Shown: positions 3,284-48,293 of the stretch, piece after piece
Position numbering within the stretch: the first letter of the stretch is position 1
Layout of the letters: each line of letters starts with the position of its first letter
Origin: a virus
Direction: 5' to 3' (one strand)
Length of the DNA: 64,000 nucleotides
Virus record (IMG/VR): IMGVR_UViG_3300045988_125874
Notes under the pieces: model-generated
What the model was told of the DNA's origin: nothing
Databases searched by the model: none
The model's input: the letters and a program-made list of their open reading frames with translations, nothing else
Translations under genes and position numbers: made by a program

Positions 3284-3722
3284 AAGGTTGGTGAATTAAA
3301 TGTTTAACTTCATTTTTGCAACATTTGCACTCGCACAATAGTGATTTAGCATATTCCCACGTCTTTTCAATTATATCATCTCCGATATACTGAATTTCCT
3401 CACCGTACGGGTCTATCCCAAATGCCTGACAGATATGAGTAGCCATGTGCCCGCACTCATGCCTCCATGACTTGGCAAATTCCTTCGAAGACGAAGTAAG
3501 GGCAATAACCATAACCGTTTCCCGTGTCCCGAAGTTGGAGTAAGTAACTCCGGTATTCAGGTTGCCGGAGTTTATGTTATCGTATGCAGTACGGAGCATA
3601 TCACCGTCGCAGCCGATGGAATGCATATTATTCAGTATCTCTTCTGTATAATATGTATCTACTGCATAATATACCATGCAGCTCCAGCCATACTTGGGTA
3701 ATGTAAACCGTTGCCTTATCAT
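3273..3722 (-). CDS. Hypothetical protein with an HExxH (HECGH) metallopeptidase-like motif and a C-terminal Cys cluster
   Basis: 149 aa. Motifs WRHECGHMATH and CECKCCK seen in the translation. Confidence 0.55.
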   Translation of the reverse strand: MIRQRFTLPKYGWSCMVYYAVDTYYTEEILNNMHSIGCDGDMLRTAYDNINSGNLNTGVTYSNFGTRETVMVIALTSSSKEFAKSWRHECGHMATHICQAFGIDPYGEEIQYIGDDIIEKTWEYAKSLLCECKCCKNEVKHLIHQPYEE

Positions 3723-42800: not shown

Positions 42801-44888
42801 TTATTCCTTTCTCGGCTCATCACCGTATTTTTCTACAAATGCTTTTAAAATATCATCTAAGTTGCCACGAATACCTGCATCTTGTATGTAATGGAGTTTA
42901 CCAACGCAACGTTCATGTAATTTGAATACACCACGATATTTCATACTTACAGGTTTATCGGTGAACACGGAAGTAGCAATAACACCACATTGATGTTTAT
43001 ATCTTATATCCAGTTCTGATTTAAATTCTGATGAAAGAACGCCCATTATTAGCAATCGGCTCAACTTAGGCAGAGGGTGGTCTATGACAAAATCCGATTT
43101 CATCCAAACTGCATCCATGCCGTATTTGCTGACCTTCAGGAAGTCAAACATACAAGCTCCGAACACGTAATCATCCAAGAACCACAAATAACAGAACGGA
43201 GCTGATCCGAGTATGATGCCTTTCTTCAAGTAAATCATGCGCAGATAATCAATTTCTGCCATAGAAGCACGAACAAACCGGAGTTTGCTATTATTTGTAA
43301 GTACGTAATCGTCTGGCAACCGTTTATATTTTAGAGGGATGATAGTCCGCTTGTTAAAACTGCTGTCTCCACTTTCTACCACATTAGACCAAATATATGT
43401 GCGTTGGTCTTTGAATACCTCTCTTCTGCCCATAAATCCATGCTGCGAGAGAGCCATGTAATTAACTTGTTCTTCATCTATTTCTGCATATTTCGTTTTA
43501 GTTCGTTCTTGAGATCCAAAATCATCCAATAAGAAACGCTGTAATGCGTTGCTTGTGGCTTTCATACCGGAATGAAATTCATTCTGATAGATCAATATGT
43601 CATTCTCTTTGCAGTTAAGAATTGCATCTGATATATCAGCACAATAAAATACTTCAATAGACTTACTTTTAAGGCTGTCTACGAGCTTTTGGTAACGTTC
43701 CGTATACTTCTTATGGTAATGCTCCAATTTTGCCATAAAATCGTCATAAAGCGACTTATGGTAAATATCTTGTGAGTTCTTATGCTTCTTGATGGCATTG
43801 AACAGATGGATAGTGGCAATAATTTCAGCCGGACTTTCAGACTTGATATTCAGAAACTCATATTCATCATTAAAACGCAGTTCTTTTATCTCTCCCTTGA
43901 TTGCCTTATACATCATGTAGATAAAATACTCCTTTGTATACACCTTAATCTCACGGTTGGTAAGTATTTGCTCTATATCCATATAGTATGAGTTTACCAC
44001 ATGAGCAATATCAAATTTGGCCGCTTCTTTCTTGATGAAGGAAAGCATACGATTAGTTTTCTTAAACATGGAGCCTACTATCGTAACATTGTCCGAGTGT
44101 TCTGCTGCCCAAAGTAACGGTTTATGTCTTTGGGGAACCTTGGAATAGTCTATATGGAATGTCTCAAGACATTTGTCAATAGTGGTGAGTTGCTTATACT
44201 CTTCTATGTCTTCATGTAGGTAGGCATATTCTACAAATGAATACATGAATTTGATTGTTTCCAGCACCTTGTCGAAGTCCCATGAACTATTGAAGATACG
44301 GAATTCTGCTGTTCCTATCTTTTCAATAGAACATAAGTTGAGCCAGTACCGGATATGTCCTCTATCTGACCCATTACTAAAAACTTTCAGTAAATTCTCA
44401 ATATTATCTGCTTCAAGAACTCGTTTTACAACATCCCAAGGTGGACTGGGTACGAGATATTTTGTTTCCCACCACTCGGCAATGTCAAATATTCGTTTGA
44501 TTGGATAAGCGGTGTAGTAGGAGAGGGCAAACAAACGTTTGATAACATTCAAGTCCATATCTTTGATGTATAGATGTGCATCAAAACCTTCATTCCACAT
44601 GAGATAACTTCCTGCATCTCTCATGGTCTGAATAAAATTCTTCAACTCCTGCAAATCTTCTATACAATAATGGTATGGGCGTGTGTTTATTTCCCCGCCA
44701 AATTGACCGTGATGCGTAACTGCCGATCCATCCGAGTTATTCATCATGGTTAGCTTGTTATCCGTCCACTTGTAACCCGATGGAAGAGGAATGTGCTCTT
44801 TATCACCATCAGCGAACTCCAGTTCCATGCCAAATGTGCGATTGGCTATATAGTCAATCCACGGTTTATCTATATTCGTGTTCTGCAT
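42801..44888 (-). CDS. Large protein with an N-terminal amidoligase-like (Amidoligase_2 / GS-like) domain and about 450 aa of unknown function
   Basis: RTFGMELEF ... NNSDGSAVTHHGQFGGEINTRP fits the amidoligase pattern (G.E.Ef ... DgS ... gg.Ei.sp). Confidence 0.55.
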   Translation of the reverse strand: MQNTNIDKPWIDYIANRTFGMELEFADGDKEHIPLPSGYKWTDNKLTMMNNSDGSAVTHHGQFGGEINTRPYHYCIEDLQELKNFIQTMRDAGSYLMWNEGFDAHLYIKDMDLNVIKRLFALSYYTAYPIKRIFDIAEWWETKYLVPSPPWDVVKRVLEADNIENLLKVFSNGSDRGHIRYWLNLCSIEKIGTAEFRIFNSSWDFDKVLETIKFMYSFVEYAYLHEDIEEYKQLTTIDKCLETFHIDYSKVPQRHKPLLWAAEHSDNVTIVGSMFKKTNRMLSFIKKEAAKFDIAHVVNSYYMDIEQILTNREIKVYTKEYFIYMMYKAIKGEIKELRFNDEYEFLNIKSESPAEIIATIHLFNAIKKHKNSQDIYHKSLYDDFMAKLEHYHKKYTERYQKLVDSLKSKSIEVFYCADISDAILNCKENDILIYQNEFHSGMKATSNALQRFLLDDFGSQERTKTKYAEIDEEQVNYMALSQHGFMGRREVFKDQRTYIWSNVVESGDSSFNKRTIIPLKYKRLPDDYVLTNNSKLRFVRASMAEIDYLRMIYLKKGIILGSAPFCYLWFLDDYVFGACMFDFLKVSKYGMDAVWMKSDFVIDHPLPKLSRLLIMGVLSSEFKSELDIRYKHQCGVIATSVFTDKPVSMKYRGVFKLHERCVGKLHYIQDAGIRGNLDDILKAFVEKYGDEPRKE

Positions 44889-45744
44889 ATCTCAACTTGA
44901 CTAATGATTTATAATCAGGGACAAAACGAACCACATCACCAATGTGATAATCCGAAACATGGTCACATTGCATTATTGTATATTCGCTGGAGCTATCTAC
45001 ATACTTCAAATTGGTATAATAGGGAATTCTGCATTTAGCCATGTCCGCCATTGAATAACCGCAATCGAGAATGAGTTGATTACGCTCTGGATAGATGCCT
45101 ATTATTCTTGTTTGTAGTTCTATCCCATTAAAGCCTTTTTTCTCTTCATTATTGCAATATGGAATAGTGCCAAACAGCATATATTCTCCTATTCGCACAT
45201 CACTTATGAAGTTTGGAAGTTTGTCATACTGTCCGAGCCAAAAACTTCCTCCTAAACTGATGGATTCAATATATCCTTTTAGGTTGTCCCAGATGTCGTA
45301 TAATCGCGACATTGGCGGGTATTTGTCATTGAGGCAACCGGAAGTAATCATACCGTATATATGAGCATCTGAAAGCATCCTTATTTCGTTAGCTAGTTTG
45401 CTTGCTTCATAAATGCTTAAACCTTCTCTGTTATCGTAAGCGTCAATTGGAATGTAGTAGTTGTGTATTCCTTGGCAACCCTCTCCATTAATAGTGAGAT
45501 ATTTCCAAGAGTCAGCAAATGATGTTACTACTGCACCTATATTATCTTTTGTCGCTTTCCCAATAGAATAACATACGCTATCTTTCAAATGTAACCCGAA
45601 AATCTTATTTCTTATTTTATCCGCTATATGCTCATGAATATCTTCATAGAAGTCCTTAAACATTAATGAAATGGGAACATTAACAAACGATTGCGCCTTT
45701 TCAATGTTCTCTATTATATTCTTGGTATAGACAATAACTTTCAT
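44866..45744 (-). CDS. Alanine-racemase-fold (PLP-dependent, predicted amino-acid racemase-like) protein
   Basis: ISLGGSFWL ... VRIGEYMLFG ... LILDCGYSMADM resemble the COG3457/YhfX-type racemase fold. ATGA overlap with the GNAT gene. Confidence 0.4.
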   Translation of the reverse strand: MKVIVYTKNIIENIEKAQSFVNVPISLMFKDFYEDIHEHIADKIRNKIFGLHLKDSVCYSIGKATKDNIGAVVTSFADSWKYLTINGEGCQGIHNYYIPIDAYDNREGLSIYEASKLANEIRMLSDAHIYGMITSGCLNDKYPPMSRLYDIWDNLKGYIESISLGGSFWLGQYDKLPNFISDVRIGEYMLFGTIPYCNNEEKKGFNGIELQTRIIGIYPERNQLILDCGYSMADMAKCRIPYYTNLKYVDSSSEYTIMQCDHVSDYHIGDVVRFVPDYKSLVKLRYAEHEYR

Positions 45745-46640
45745 AGCTCCCACTTTAAGATTAAACGTTCAATCCCTTTGTATTTGGTATCACGTTTGAA
45801 CGAGAACCCGGCATTGGTAAAACTCTTGATACTTGCTTCATTTTTGGGTGAGGTCATGGCAAATACCTCTTGTGCACCGTTTGAAACCAATTTTGCAAGA
45901 TTAGCATTGAGTAGAATGTACTGAAAGCTATTACCCCTATAATCTGAACGAACGAAACATTTATCTACGTAGGCAGTACCGTATTCAGTGAAATATGCAA
46001 GCGAATAAGCAACCAGCTTATCATTTGTCAATAATCCGTAACTGCAACCAGATTGCAAGCACTTGACTATATCTTCCGGTTCCGAAGCGAAACACATATC
46101 AGGATCAGAGAGCAACTTTTGCTCAATTTCTTCTATGGTAGTAATGTCAGACATAGATAAAGCTTTCACTTGCATATTGTATTCTATGCTTCCTTTATGC
46201 GTCGGGAACAATGGTTCGTAACGGTCAATCCATGCTTTAGAAAGGAATGTGTCTATATCGACTTTAGGCAATAATGCTTTTCTATAATTGTCGAAAATGT
46301 CTAGTACAAATTCTTTATGCTTAGTAAGTTGCTCATTTTTCAACGGACATTTACTGCTACGGAAAACAAGACCTTTTTTTACCGACTTTACCCACAAAGG
46401 ATAAGTTCTACACATGATAGGTTTGTAGCCATTATCACATGATTTACAGTCTTTAGCGATACATTTAATCTTTTTACCGCCAAAGTAATCATCATCTATA
46501 ATCTGTAAATGGGAGATTTCTTTTTCATACCCGTCAAGTTCATGGGGGAGAATTACAATATGTCCGTCCGATCCGAACGAACAACACTTCCAACCGCAGC
46601 CGGAGTTTTCACATGCTCTTATTAGTCCTTTTTCGTCCAT
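45741..46640 (-). CDS. Fusion of a CxxCxxCC (YkgJ-type Zn/Fe-chelating) domain and a GNAT acetyltransferase domain
   Basis: N-terminus: CENSGCGWKCC ... KPIMCRTYPLW. C-terminus: FVRSDYRGNSFQYILL ... SPKNEASIKSFTNAGF. Confidence 0.65.
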   Translation of the reverse strand: MDEKGLIRACENSGCGWKCCSFGSDGHIVILPHELDGYEKEISHLQIIDDDYFGGKKIKCIAKDCKSCDNGYKPIMCRTYPLWVKSVKKGLVFRSSKCPLKNEQLTKHKEFVLDIFDNYRKALLPKVDIDTFLSKAWIDRYEPLFPTHKGSIEYNMQVKALSMSDITTIEEIEQKLLSDPDMCFASEPEDIVKCLQSGCSYGLLTNDKLVAYSLAYFTEYGTAYVDKCFVRSDYRGNSFQYILLNANLAKLVSNGAQEVFAMTSPKNEASIKSFTNAGFSFKRDTKYKGIERLILKWEL

Positions 46641-46865: not shown

Positions 46866-47052
46866 AGGGATAAGCAGGATTCGAACCTGCACAAGTATCG
46901 TCTGCTTTCTCGTTTTCGTCCGTAGATTGGTTATCCTACGATCTTTAAACTACTCGACCTGTTACTAACAGCCGGTCTTGATGACATCCATTCTTATGTA
47001 CACTTGGAACTTCCGTTCATTTAGTCTTAGCTCCCTATGACCATTTTATCCC
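46866..47052 (-). tRNA. Oversized tRNA-like gene A (187 nt): canonical acceptor, D-like arm and T-arm with about 120 nt between the D- and T-arms
   Basis: 5' GGGATAA pairs with 3' TTATCCC. D-like arm TGGTC-12 nt-GACTA. T-arm GCAGG-TTCGAAT-CCTGC. The 5' end lies 4 nt after gene B. Confidence 0.45.
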
Positions 47053-47056
47053 TTAG

Positions 47057-47207
47057 TAGTGGTAGCAGGATTCGAACCTGCATGATAGGAGTTATTTTGC
47101 TGTTACATTTAAAAACAGCCATGCCCGTTTATTTTTACAACCTTAGCCTAGGGTTAACCTATCTATAAACATGTCACTTTAGCGTCTACTAATTCCGCCA
47201 TACCACC
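47057..47207 (-). tRNA. Oversized tRNA-like gene B (151 nt): Leu-type 5' half, canonical T-arm, about 105 nt in between
   Basis: GGTGGTA-TG-GCG-GAATTAGTAGA-CGC resembles tRNA-Leu. Also ...GCAGG-TTCGAAT-CCTGC-TACCACT-A and internal hairpin GCTGTT-TTTAAATGT-AACAGC. Confidence 0.45.
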
Positions 47208-47251
47208 AAATTTGCGTGTCTTTCCACGCTGTCAGATTGTTTGCAGTACCA

Positions 47252-47326
47252 ACTAAATGCAAGGAATCGAACCTTGTCGCTTACTTTACACAACCTCAAT
47301 CAACGAGCCGAGTTTAACGGCATTCG
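47252..47326 (-). tRNA. Degenerate tRNA-like element C (75 nt): good T-arm, imperfect acceptor, irregular D and anticodon arms (possible pseudo-tRNA)
   Basis: T-arm CAAGG-TTCGATT-CCTTG. Acceptor TCGAATG/CATTTAG has 5 pairs. Only 3-bp hairpins where the D and anticodon arms should be. Confidence 0.3.
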
Positions 47327-47396
47327 AGCGGAAACAGGGAATCGAACCCCACTCTTTGGCTGGAATGCCAACGCTCTACCGATGAGCTATTTCCGC
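47327..47396 (-). tRNA. tRNA with a Gly-like acceptor but a non-standard anticodon arm (TTGGC-ATTCCA-GCCAA: 6-nt loop, or 8-nt with a 4-bp stem)
   Basis: GCGGAAA-TA-GCTC-ATCGGTA-GAGC-G-TTGGC-ATTCCA-GCCAA-AGAG-TGGGG-TTCGATT-CCCTG-TTTCCGC. Confidence 0.7.
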
Positions 47397-47456: not shown

Positions 47457-47837
47457 CTATTGACGGTTGGCTAATAATTCCGGATTGTCATAAATATTAC
47501 CTGCATATCTAATTCCGAACATATCTATCATTTGTCCTATTGGTTTGTTCCCAAGATTTTGAGACAGAACTTCTAATAGCACAAAAGAACCGATTTTATC
47601 ACTATACACTACCTCACATAATACGCCAGCACATTCAACTAAATCATGCTCATATATTTCTTTCCCGCTCTTGTCACACAAGCCGGTGAACTGCCCAAGA
47701 GTATTTTCGTCTATTTTTTCAACGTCATTATCGTGCAACCAAGTTCCATCTCCATCTTGAATAAGCGTATAAGAATCTCTTATCCATCCCTTACCATCAA
47801 TGCGCTTCCCTCTAAACTTAATCCTTCTCATACTCAA
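47457..47837 (-). CDS. YopX-family protein
   Basis: IKFRGKRIDGKGW ... LGQFTGLCDKSGKEIYEHDLV ... GNIYDNPELL. Confidence 0.75.
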   Translation of the reverse strand: MSMRRIKFRGKRIDGKGWIRDSYTLIQDGDGTWLHDNDVEKIDENTLGQFTGLCDKSGKEIYEHDLVECAGVLCEVVYSDKIGSFVLLEVLSQNLGNKPIGQMIDMFGIRYAGNIYDNPELLANRQ

Positions 47838-48238
47838 AATAAACTTGCTTGTTCGTATTTAGGTTCCTTTTTCTCAACTACTCCGAACTCTGTTATTTCA
47901 ATGCCAGTCTTTTCAGTAAGCCATTTTGCCAAAATATGACGATGGCAGAAATCACCCGGTTTTTCGTAACAGCATAGAGCGACATCTTTACCTTCACTGT
48001 GTCGTTGGATAGTTTGAATCAATTCTTGCGGATTGACTTTTGCAAGAACATCATTCAAATACATACTCGTGTACTCTTCATAAGTCCATTTGTCATCTAA
48101 CATATATCTTCTTGGTGCAACCTCTATAATTTGAGGTGCGTTATAAAATTTTGGTCTGCCTAAAGCGACACATATCATTTTGATGTTCGCTGCTGCCAGT
48201 TTTCTGTAATTTCCAAAATATGATGTATAAATCCTCAT
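47834..48238 (-). CDS. DUF488-family protein (start at MRIYTSYF)
   Basis: MRIYTSYFGNYRK ... VALCCYEKPGDFCHRHILAKWL. Confidence 0.7.
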   Translation of the reverse strand: MRIYTSYFGNYRKLAAANIKMICVALGRPKFYNAPQIIEVAPRRYMLDDKWTYEEYTSMYLNDVLAKVNPQELIQTIQRHSEGKDVALCCYEKPGDFCHRHILAKWLTEKTGIEITEFGVVEKKEPKYEQASLF

Positions 48239-48252
48239 TGCTTTAATTTTAT

Positions 48253-48293
48253 GGTGTAAAGATACAAAAAGTGGCGTAAATTCAATCACTTTT
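48253..48293 (-). promoter_or_regulatory. Conserved promoter/operator, copy 3 of 4
   Basis: Minus strand AAAAGTGATTGAATTTACGCCACTTTTTGTATCTTTACACC. Confidence 0.55.

Follow-up and report, generated by a model that had tools for sequence, protein, structure and literature searches.

The 64,000-nucleotide (nt) stretch of DNA analysed here (the window), from the IMG/VR virus record IMGVR_UViG_3300045988_125874, carries two adjacent oversized tRNA-like genes, elements A and B, for which the favoured reading, held at a probability of roughly 60%, is that they are genes for non-decoding stable RNAs built on a tRNA chassis. In both elements and in their relatives, the top half of a tRNA is kept (acceptor stem, T-arm and D-arm) and the anticodon arm is lost; the bottom halves are structured and exchangeable, and the arrangement has a wide distribution. 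An earlier annotation of the window (the original prediction) had listed a new class of tRNA-mimicking RNA among the possible interpretations, and this is the one favoured by the evidence below. The boundaries and the acceptor, D- and T-arms that it proposed are confirmed, with both genes on the minus strand and their stems covarying in relatives.

A and B belong to a phage tRNA(-like) array, as had been supposed from their close spacing (Table 1). Read along the minus strand, it consists of tRNA D, element C, a small hairpin, B and A, followed by a conserved 225-nt leader and a GNAT gene (46640-45741). All four copies of the T-loop motif GGTTCGANTCC in the window are on the minus strand and within 46877-47348, for a chance expectation of 0.02. 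Read as RNA, B consists of GGUGGUA, UG, the D-arm GCGGAAUUAGUAGACGC, a 100-nt insert, the T-arm, UACCACU and the discriminator A. A normal phage tRNA-Leu(TAG) at locus L084 has exactly the D-arm of B, which bears out the earlier remark that the 5' half of B is tRNA-Leu-like, and B most likely derives from a frame of the tRNA-Leu type. No conserved anticodon arm of 5 bp and 7 nt was found in A, B or their relatives, in agreement with the original prediction, which had recognised no standard anticodon stem.

In A, the D-arm and T-arm are separated by 131 nt, including two arms and a single U just ahead of the T-arm. When the 17 distinct A sequences are compared with the structure given by RNAalifold, 99.1% of cells are paired and eight pairs are doubly changed, a result matched by 0 of 500 shuffles. 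In relatives, the acceptor goes from GGG/CCC to GAG/CUC with G-U intermediates, the T-stem from GCAGG/CCUGC to GUAGG/CCUAC (12 of 17 relatives), and pairs 46/60 and 47/59 of the helix 43-47/59-63 turn from C-G to U-A in five and seven sequences, respectively. The long-range helix 84-87/154-157, which holds a swapped module, has three pairs with double changes; three unrelated versions of this distal module were seen (a1 in the window, a2 and a3 in relatives), with the basal helices kept. This covariation supports a class II-like layout of A. It does not support several finer details proposed earlier: the GAAC-GGAA-GTTC hairpin of A with its GNRA loop is paired in 89.7% of cells and its closing pair is broken in 7 of the 17 relatives; for the local GCTGTT...AACAG hairpin, the share of paired cells falls to 77%, covariation favouring instead the helix 43-47/59-63 and the long-range module helix; and the GGCTGTT...TAACAG element, thought to be shared by A and B, is not conserved in relatives.

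The loop AAGUGUACAUA of A (46998-47005, minus strand) contains the palindrome UGUACA, replaced in relatives by UGCGCA, a double change that leaves the loop self-complementary, or by GCGCGC. It resembles a kissing-loop dimerisation site; across the inserts overall, such palindromes show no enrichment (10 observed versus 16 expected).

Related loci were retrieved from IMG/VR in two ways, 80 of them via the GNAT neighbour (80-100% protein identity) and more than 100 further ones via the constant leader. tRNA D is present in all of them, and many carry D only. The array between D and the leader spans 106-1057 nt and exists in 42-45 distinct versions, made of elements of B-type (121-169 nt), A-type (156 or 187-191 nt) and E-type (125-262 nt), none of which has the size of a normal tRNA. 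In 24 distinct B/E-type frames, the acceptor, D- and T-stems are paired in 99.7% of 360 cells, with double changes in 11 of 15 pairs. For the B-type, neither any of 500 shuffles nor any slid register comes near the observed pairing; its acceptor is paired in 100% of cells with six of seven pairs compensated, and all three D-stem pairs covary. The sequence of the B/E acceptor can be very different from one frame to the next (GGUGGUA/UACCACC, GGUAGUA/UGCUACC, GGUAUCG/CGAUACC, GAAGGAA/UUCCUUC or GAUACAG/CUGUGUC). The long-range acceptor pairing, whose absence from relatives had been named beforehand as a possible refutation, is conserved and covaries, and the acceptor, D- and T-stems are under selection. 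The discriminator is U or G wherever an element ends the array. Two further frames were noticed in relatives: a 104-nt class I-type frame (GGAUAAU...AUUAUCC; L070, 2931-3034), whose anticodon arm is replaced by 46 nt, and an E-type frame (GGCAUAG...CUAUGUC; L212, 3735-3965) with an insert of about 175 nt.

The inserts behave very differently from the frame. A single B frame at a single locus accommodates at least six unrelated inserts (modules b1-b6) among phages with 80-100% identity in the neighbouring GNAT gene. Conversely, a given module can be found in several frames: b6 is also present in a GAAGGAA/TTCCTTC frame, and b2 in GGTAGTA and GGTATCG frames. Whole elements are gained or lost exactly at the discriminator, i.e., at the tRNA boundary, so that, from phage to phage, it is D, B or A that comes right before the leader (...CAACCC), and one array is a C/B chimera recombined inside the T-arm. 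The inserts are thus exchanged as cassettes among related phages. Those with more than one variant show compensatory changes of their own, as in b6 (CAUG/CAUG to CAGG/CCUG and CCG/CGG to CAG/CUG) and, by inspection, in b4 (GUACGG/CCGUAU to GUGUGG/CCACAU) and e1 (GGG/CCC to GAG/CUC); they are therefore folded RNA domains and not random filler. For module b5, the insert of B in the window, the minimum free energy prediction gives a closing helix GAUAGG/CCUAUC and the hairpins AACC...GGUU and GCUGUU...AACAGC. The closing helix (GATAGG/CCTATC as DNA) is common to modules b1, b4, e1 and e2, and the 3' junction CCUAUCAU ahead of the T-arm recurs in the same four modules.

This design extends well beyond the relatives of the window. 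A pattern scan of IMG/VR, combining the 19-mer of the tRNA-Leu D-arm, a gap of 62-92 nt and the T-loop, matched at least 120 contigs from gut, marine, freshwater and other samples, some of them longer than 100 kb. The matches listed comprise 101 distinct elements, each 110-140 nt long, with 87 different chassis, and the figures that follow refer to them. In 71 of the 87 chassis, all seven acceptor pairs form; 92.8% of cells are paired, versus 59% with shuffled partners, and every acceptor position shows all Watson-Crick pair types. The inserts of 87 elements fall into 74 unrelated clusters, and in elements with an identical chassis divergence starts at the first nt after the D-arm and stops 1-3 nt before the T-stem. 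An A discriminator is found in 67 of 87 cases (77%), and a U stands just ahead of the T-stem in 85 of 87. About one third of the elements adjoin ordinary tRNA genes, the remainder being solitary, and no neighbouring protein family is common to the 119 loci. In some IMG/VR contigs, oversized or unusual tRNA-like genes come in adjacent pairs (L220, 397-512 and 10-148; L255, 871-1053; L257, 2504-2897), and one such gene has a 42-nt insertion in the D-loop and not in the anticodon region.

Searches against known families returned little besides tRNA. ARAGORN at default and Rfam at the gathering score called neither A nor B in the window, tRNA D being the only gene recognised. With permissive Rfam settings, B gives a 23.9-bit tRNA match in a different frame (the gathering threshold is 29 bits) and A is matched in its T-arm only, whereas many relatives and IMG/VR elements pass the gathering score of the tRNA model (31-47 bits), with a local end across the anticodon arm. 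At both settings, only the tRNA model was matched in the window, eight related loci, a distant relative and 20 IMG/VR loci. The intron mode of ARAGORN gave no call at default and inconsistent calls at a lowered threshold. The inserts have no match in Rfam or in GenBank phages or plasmids, the window array has no match in 50,697 phage records including T4, and a full-text search of the literature turned up no account of hypervariable inserts in oversized tRNA frames.

How such genes could work is suggested by what is known of tRNA maturation. RNase P, 3' processing nucleases, the CCA-adding enzyme, EF-Tu and LeuRS all read mainly the top half of tRNAs, and the tRNA-like excision and stabilisation of A and B are expected for this reason. 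The array D-C-B-A would be transcribed along with the phage tRNA genes, and the intact acceptor/T-arm minihelix and elbow would then let the host RNase P, 3' processing nuclease and CCA-adding enzyme excise and finish each RNA, yielding species of 150-190 nt with tRNA-like stability. Lacking an anticodon arm, these RNAs could not decode, although they could possibly be charged: LeuRS recognises A73, which is one of its identity elements, and the elbow, but not the anticodon. They would act by binding a protein or RNA partner in the conflict between phage and host, either via the displayed module or via mimicry by the tRNA-like top half. Selection on the structure of the module and its length favour the module as the working end, the chassis then providing the scaffold that permits processing and stability, while the unlimited diversity of the modules and the retained A73 favour the chassis itself, acting as a mimic or decoy.

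Several observations weigh against the interpretation of A and B as non-decoding stable RNAs. Beyond a gene with a conserved structure, we infer transcription, processing, stability and the existence of a partner. The near-unlimited diversity of the inserts also fits weakly constrained "stuffer" hairpins, and k-mer enrichment in the 87 inserts of the matches listed found no common motif, junction-proximal words being weakly enriched. Some frames (E type, L192) have lost G18G19 and the T-loop consensus, such that the elbow is not uniformly preserved. The fold of B is not exceptional (z-score of only -1.1), and module b5 is confined to contigs identical to the window, the fold of this insert being a thermodynamic prediction only. 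Finally, the modules show no excess of antisense complementarity to the window, to related loci or to their own 10-15 kb flanks (9.5 nt versus 9.3 nt in controls), in tests to which targets of 7-9 nt are invisible; a single 14-nt match in the related loci L315 and L284 is probably due to chance.

If the chassis were the working end and nothing else mattered, the tRNA-Leu-like top half would titrate or block a tRNA-recognising protein, such as a tRNA-cleaving defence nuclease, LeuRS, EF-Tu or a modification enzyme, and the inserts would serve only to abolish decoding and stabilise the RNA. This alternative is rather unlikely as a full explanation, and it is nonetheless the strongest competitor. 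It accounts for inserts that are nearly unique to each phage and share no motif (74 clusters for 87 elements among the matches listed), for the retention of A73 in 77% of these elements, and for acceptor sequences that vary freely next to conserved D- and T-arms. The presence or absence of elements in otherwise syntenic phages fits as well, and defence nucleases cutting the variable loop of class II tRNAs have been described, together with phage tRNAs acting against such enzymes (PMC13096335, PMC11555353). However, a decoy for an anticodon- or variable-loop nuclease should retain the loop in question, which is replaced here, and a structured insert of 60-230 nt is not needed to abolish decoding. 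The U or G discriminator of array-final elements and the missing elbow consensus of some frames are likewise difficult to reconcile with such a role.

The position of the array directly upstream of a conserved cluster (GNAT, a 289-aa (amino acid) protein, Amidoligase_2 + DAM-like + GNAT-phage-like, ParB_N) raises the question of whether the RNAs, including D, could be charged non-ribosomal carriers that donate amino acids to this DNA-modification operon. D has a GlyRS-like identity set and cannot decode normally, and A73 is retained in B frames, both of which would suit a carrier. Still, A, B, C and E are optional in the cluster, a more distant version of which (L214) has no tRNA gene at all, and the GNAT protein lacks the tandem-GNAT architecture of Fem proteins or that of L/F-transferases (its N-terminal half is Cys-rich, without a second GNAT). 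For these reasons, a link between A/B and the downstream operon is improbable; furthermore, the Leu-like IMG/VR elements among the matches listed have no consistent neighbouring gene.

Introns were also considered in the original prediction. A and B would then be intron- or insertion-bearing tRNAs, spliced by themselves or by a phage nuclease and ligase into decoding tRNAs such as tRNA-Leu(UAA). Introns typically appear as hypervariable, structured inserts with conserved sequence on either side, UUAAA-type loops exist in some inserts (b3, b5, b6, L267), and L267 retains a 5-bp stem at the position of the anticodon stem. Against this, elements with an identical chassis do not share any exon-like anticodon stem, and relatives have UGA in place of UAA in the b6 loop, or a loop of 8 nt. 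Excision of every possible segment from nine elements, followed by ARAGORN, gave an anticodon that differed with the module, and nothing for A. In intron mode, ARAGORN called 62 of 101 real elements among the matches listed, but also 62-64 of 101 after dinucleotide shuffling of the inserts, with an equal share of Leu anticodons. No group I intron or ribozyme family was matched in Rfam at E ≤ 10 in the 1.2 kb around A and B or in relatives, known group I introns are longer than these inserts, and bacteria are not known to possess a tRNA splicing endonuclease. Splicing is thus a very improbable explanation.

No more credible is the possibility that A and B are decaying tRNA pseudogenes, or chance tRNA-like fragments with junk insertions. 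Their absence from the calls of ARAGORN and of Rfam at the gathering score would be expected in this case, as would the unexceptional fold energy of B, and element C and one copy (L121) do appear degenerate. Yet decay would not preserve the pairing almost perfectly, with numerous compensations in the inner helices as well as in the acceptor, D- and T-stems, nor would it leave the same architecture in more than 100 unrelated viral contigs. Lastly, miniature transfer-messenger RNA (tmRNA)-like RNAs, combining a tRNA-like domain with a tag-encoding insert, can be dismissed: the succession of acceptor, D region, long insert and T-arm does resemble tmRNA, but a tmRNA requires a G3-U70 pair and a tag open reading frame, whereas A has G3-C70, B has U3-A70, both have a complete D-stem, no tag frame is present (as had been noted earlier), ARAGORN finds zero tmRNA genes at default and overlapping, mutually inconsistent ones at a lowered threshold, and the permissive Rfam tmRNA matches cover T-arm/T-loop segments only (17 nt, 9 bits; 11 nt, 7.1 bits).

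Read as non-decoding, tRNA-based stable RNAs, A and B can be compared with several known systems. With canonical tRNAs (RF00005), they share a 7-bp acceptor closed by both ends, a D-arm and a T-arm with a GTTCRANYC loop, but they lack the anticodon arm of 5 bp and 7 nt right after position 26 and exceed the usual 70-95 nt. The acceptor/D/T frame of B and the A73 common in the family are those of class II tRNA-Leu, from which the family differs by its length (110-260 nt) and by the lack of a conserved anticodon. Ponchon and Dardel reportedly engineered, in 2007, a tRNA scaffold whose anticodon arm was swapped for a foreign structured RNA, with tRNA-like processing and stability; that scaffold is man-made, whereas the arrangement of A and B is natural, phage-encoded and diversified. 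The specificity regions of C4/CI-type RNAs differ between heteroimmune phages. These small phage RNAs (C4 of P1/P7 and CI of P4; ~77-80 nt, hairpin-like) are matured by RNase P via ends that mimic a tRNA acceptor and have no T-loop (PMC5499578), in contrast to A and B, with their complete T- and D-arms and the absence of any match to the C4 and Y RNA families of Rfam. tmRNA and YrlA also join a tRNA-like module to a large non-tRNA domain, but in YrlA the tRNA-like domain is internal and the ends form a Ro-binding stem (PMC4201824), whereas those of A and B form the acceptor stem.

The closest known analogue is found in phage T4, where RNAC (species 1, 139 nt) and RNAD (species 2, 119 nt) are stable RNAs encoded at the end of the tRNA cluster, with no role assigned yet (PMC3014915, PMC9697503). 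In T4 as in the window, a phage tRNA cluster ends on its 3' side with two oversized RNA genes, which are separated from the adjacent ones by 1-6 nt and have no Rfam family. RNAC furthermore possesses a canonical T-arm (CCGGG-UUCGAAU-CCCGG), paired termini and long hairpins in place of the D and anticodon arms. The differences are also clear: the T4 genes have no sequence homology to the window array, RNAC is conserved over its full length in 728 T4-like records whereas inserts are swapped in the relatives of A and B, and the acceptor of RNAC is interrupted and RNAD has no T-arm, whereas A and B have a full D-arm and a clean 7-bp acceptor. A and B thus apparently represent a further variant of the stable RNAs of phage tRNA clusters, with a distinctive and apparently widespread design.

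The other members of the array deserve mention as well. tRNA D scores 53 bits as a tRNA; its anticodon loop is AUUCCA, and ARAGORN reports it as "tRNA-??? (tc)". More than 150 related loci have retained this loop, as has the distant relative L212, whose acceptor stem covaries (GCGCAAA/UUUGCGC), and, by eye, D has the bacterial GlyRS identity set (G1-C72, C2-G71, G3-C70, U73, C35C36). D may be a non-decoding or nuclease-resistant tRNA-Gly(UCC). A scan of bacterial genomes for D found a single contig, from a metagenome-assembled genome. In element C, the T-arm CAAGG-UUCGAUU-CCUUG covaries in relatives (AAAGG/CCUUU, UAUGG/CCAUG), and an anticodon-arm-like hairpin is present (GCCG-UUAAACU-CGGC). 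The GAAAGA loop of the small hairpin, carried by other complementary stems, precedes tRNA(-like) genes at L070 (~2895-2925) and L212 (~3636-3655), and the motif CUGACAGCGUGGAA is also present within some inserts; this hairpin may be a processing or protein-binding signal. The leader, which has no Rfam match over 46865-46641, continues past its long hairpin with a terminator-like hairpin (GCCUGUCGGG...CUCGACAGGC) and a small AU hairpin right before the GNAT start codon.

The window also encodes an SPP1-type portal, terminases, YopX and an amidoligase/DAM-like/GNAT cluster. A conserved cluster surrounds the array (42801-46640 and 47457-48289, minus strand), with DUF488, YopX, the array itself, the GNAT protein (a Cys-rich N-terminal domain and a single GNAT domain), a protein of 289-295 aa, a 695-aa Amidoligase_2 + DAM-like + GNAT-phage-like protein, an HNH endonuclease, a ParB_N nuclease and a terminase; it looks like a module for DNA base hypermodification. 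The cluster is also present as a prophage in Paraprevotella xylaniphila (LR215980.1). The window belongs to a phage or prophage; because a homologue of the neighbouring GNAT gene sits in this chromosomal prophage, the host is placed among the Bacteroidota, and the array is assigned to a phage or prophage of Paraprevotella.

Table 1. Features of the array in the window, with positions counted from its first letter.
Feature	Positions	Strand	Remarks
tRNA D	47396-47326	minus	First gene of array; Gly(UCC)-like; conserved 6-nt anticodon loop
Element C	~47325-47243	minus	T-arm-bearing tRNA-like remnant; starts right after D; no D-arm or clean 7-bp acceptor stem
Hairpin GCGUG-GAAAGA-CACGC	47229-47214	minus	6 nt upstream of B; recurs ahead of other tRNA(-like) genes; stems covary
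Element B	47207..47057	minus	Oversized tRNA-Leu-like gene; 151 nt = 150 nt + discriminator A47057
B acceptor 5' strand GGTGGTA	47207-47201	minus	Pairs with 47064-47058
B D-arm GCGGAATTAGTAGACGC	47198-47182	minus	Class II, tRNA-Leu type
B insert, module b5	47181-47082	minus	100 nt; in place of anticodon and variable arms
B T-arm GCAGG-UUCGAAU-CCUGC	47081-47065	minus	DNA GCAGGTTCGAATCCTGC
B acceptor 3' strand TACCACT	47064-47058	minus	Stem 7/7; G1-U72 is a wobble pair
Spacer CTAA between B and A	47056-47053	minus	4 nt
Element A	47052..46866	minus	Oversized tRNA-like gene; 187 nt = 186 nt + discriminator U46866
A acceptor 5' strand GGGATAA	47052-47046	minus	7/7 Watson-Crick with 46873-46867
A D-arm (UGGUC...GACUA)	47043-47022	minus	One compensatory change, G-C to A-U, in L004
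A arm at anticodon-arm position	47020-46981	minus	40 nt, no anticodon; helices AUGA/UCAU and GUUCC/(G/A)GAAU (RNAalifold); 11-nt loop AAGUGUACAUA
A long arm at variable-arm position	46980-46892	minus	89 nt; helices CAAGACCG/CGAUACUUG and CUG/CAG enclose swapped module
A T-arm GCAGG-UUCGAAU-CCUGC	46890-46874	minus	Identical to that of B
A acceptor 3' strand TTATCCC	46873-46867	minus	
Leader	46865-46641	minus	Conserved, structured, non-coding; after last array element; ~115-nt irregular hairpin with several compensatory changes

If the favoured reading is right, gene finders miss loci of this kind or mislabel them as intron-containing or undetermined tRNAs, and the shuffle control indicates that intron calls are uninformative here. 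On a broader and more tentative view, for which the odds fall short of even, many phage lineages would carry an undescribed class of non-coding RNA (ncRNA), with a top-half chassis that is mostly tRNA-Leu-like, possibly leucylated and matured by the host tRNA machinery, and which displays an exchangeable structured domain. Such RNAs would be modular accessories for anti-defence or host takeover, their cassettes recombining at the tRNA flanks, the chassis would be nature's equivalent of the engineered tRNA scaffold, and T4 RNAC/RNAD would be one conserved instance. If this is true, phages share a widespread class of ncRNA with a clear design rule, in which the top half of a tRNA is conserved while the bottom half is hypervariable, and the role of RNAs of the RNAC/RNAD type, a 50-year-old puzzle, would become testable by comparative genomics and module-swap genetics. 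These loci would also constitute a natural library of RNA domains tolerated in a tRNA scaffold, of use both in RNA expression technology and in the discovery of anti-defence RNAs.

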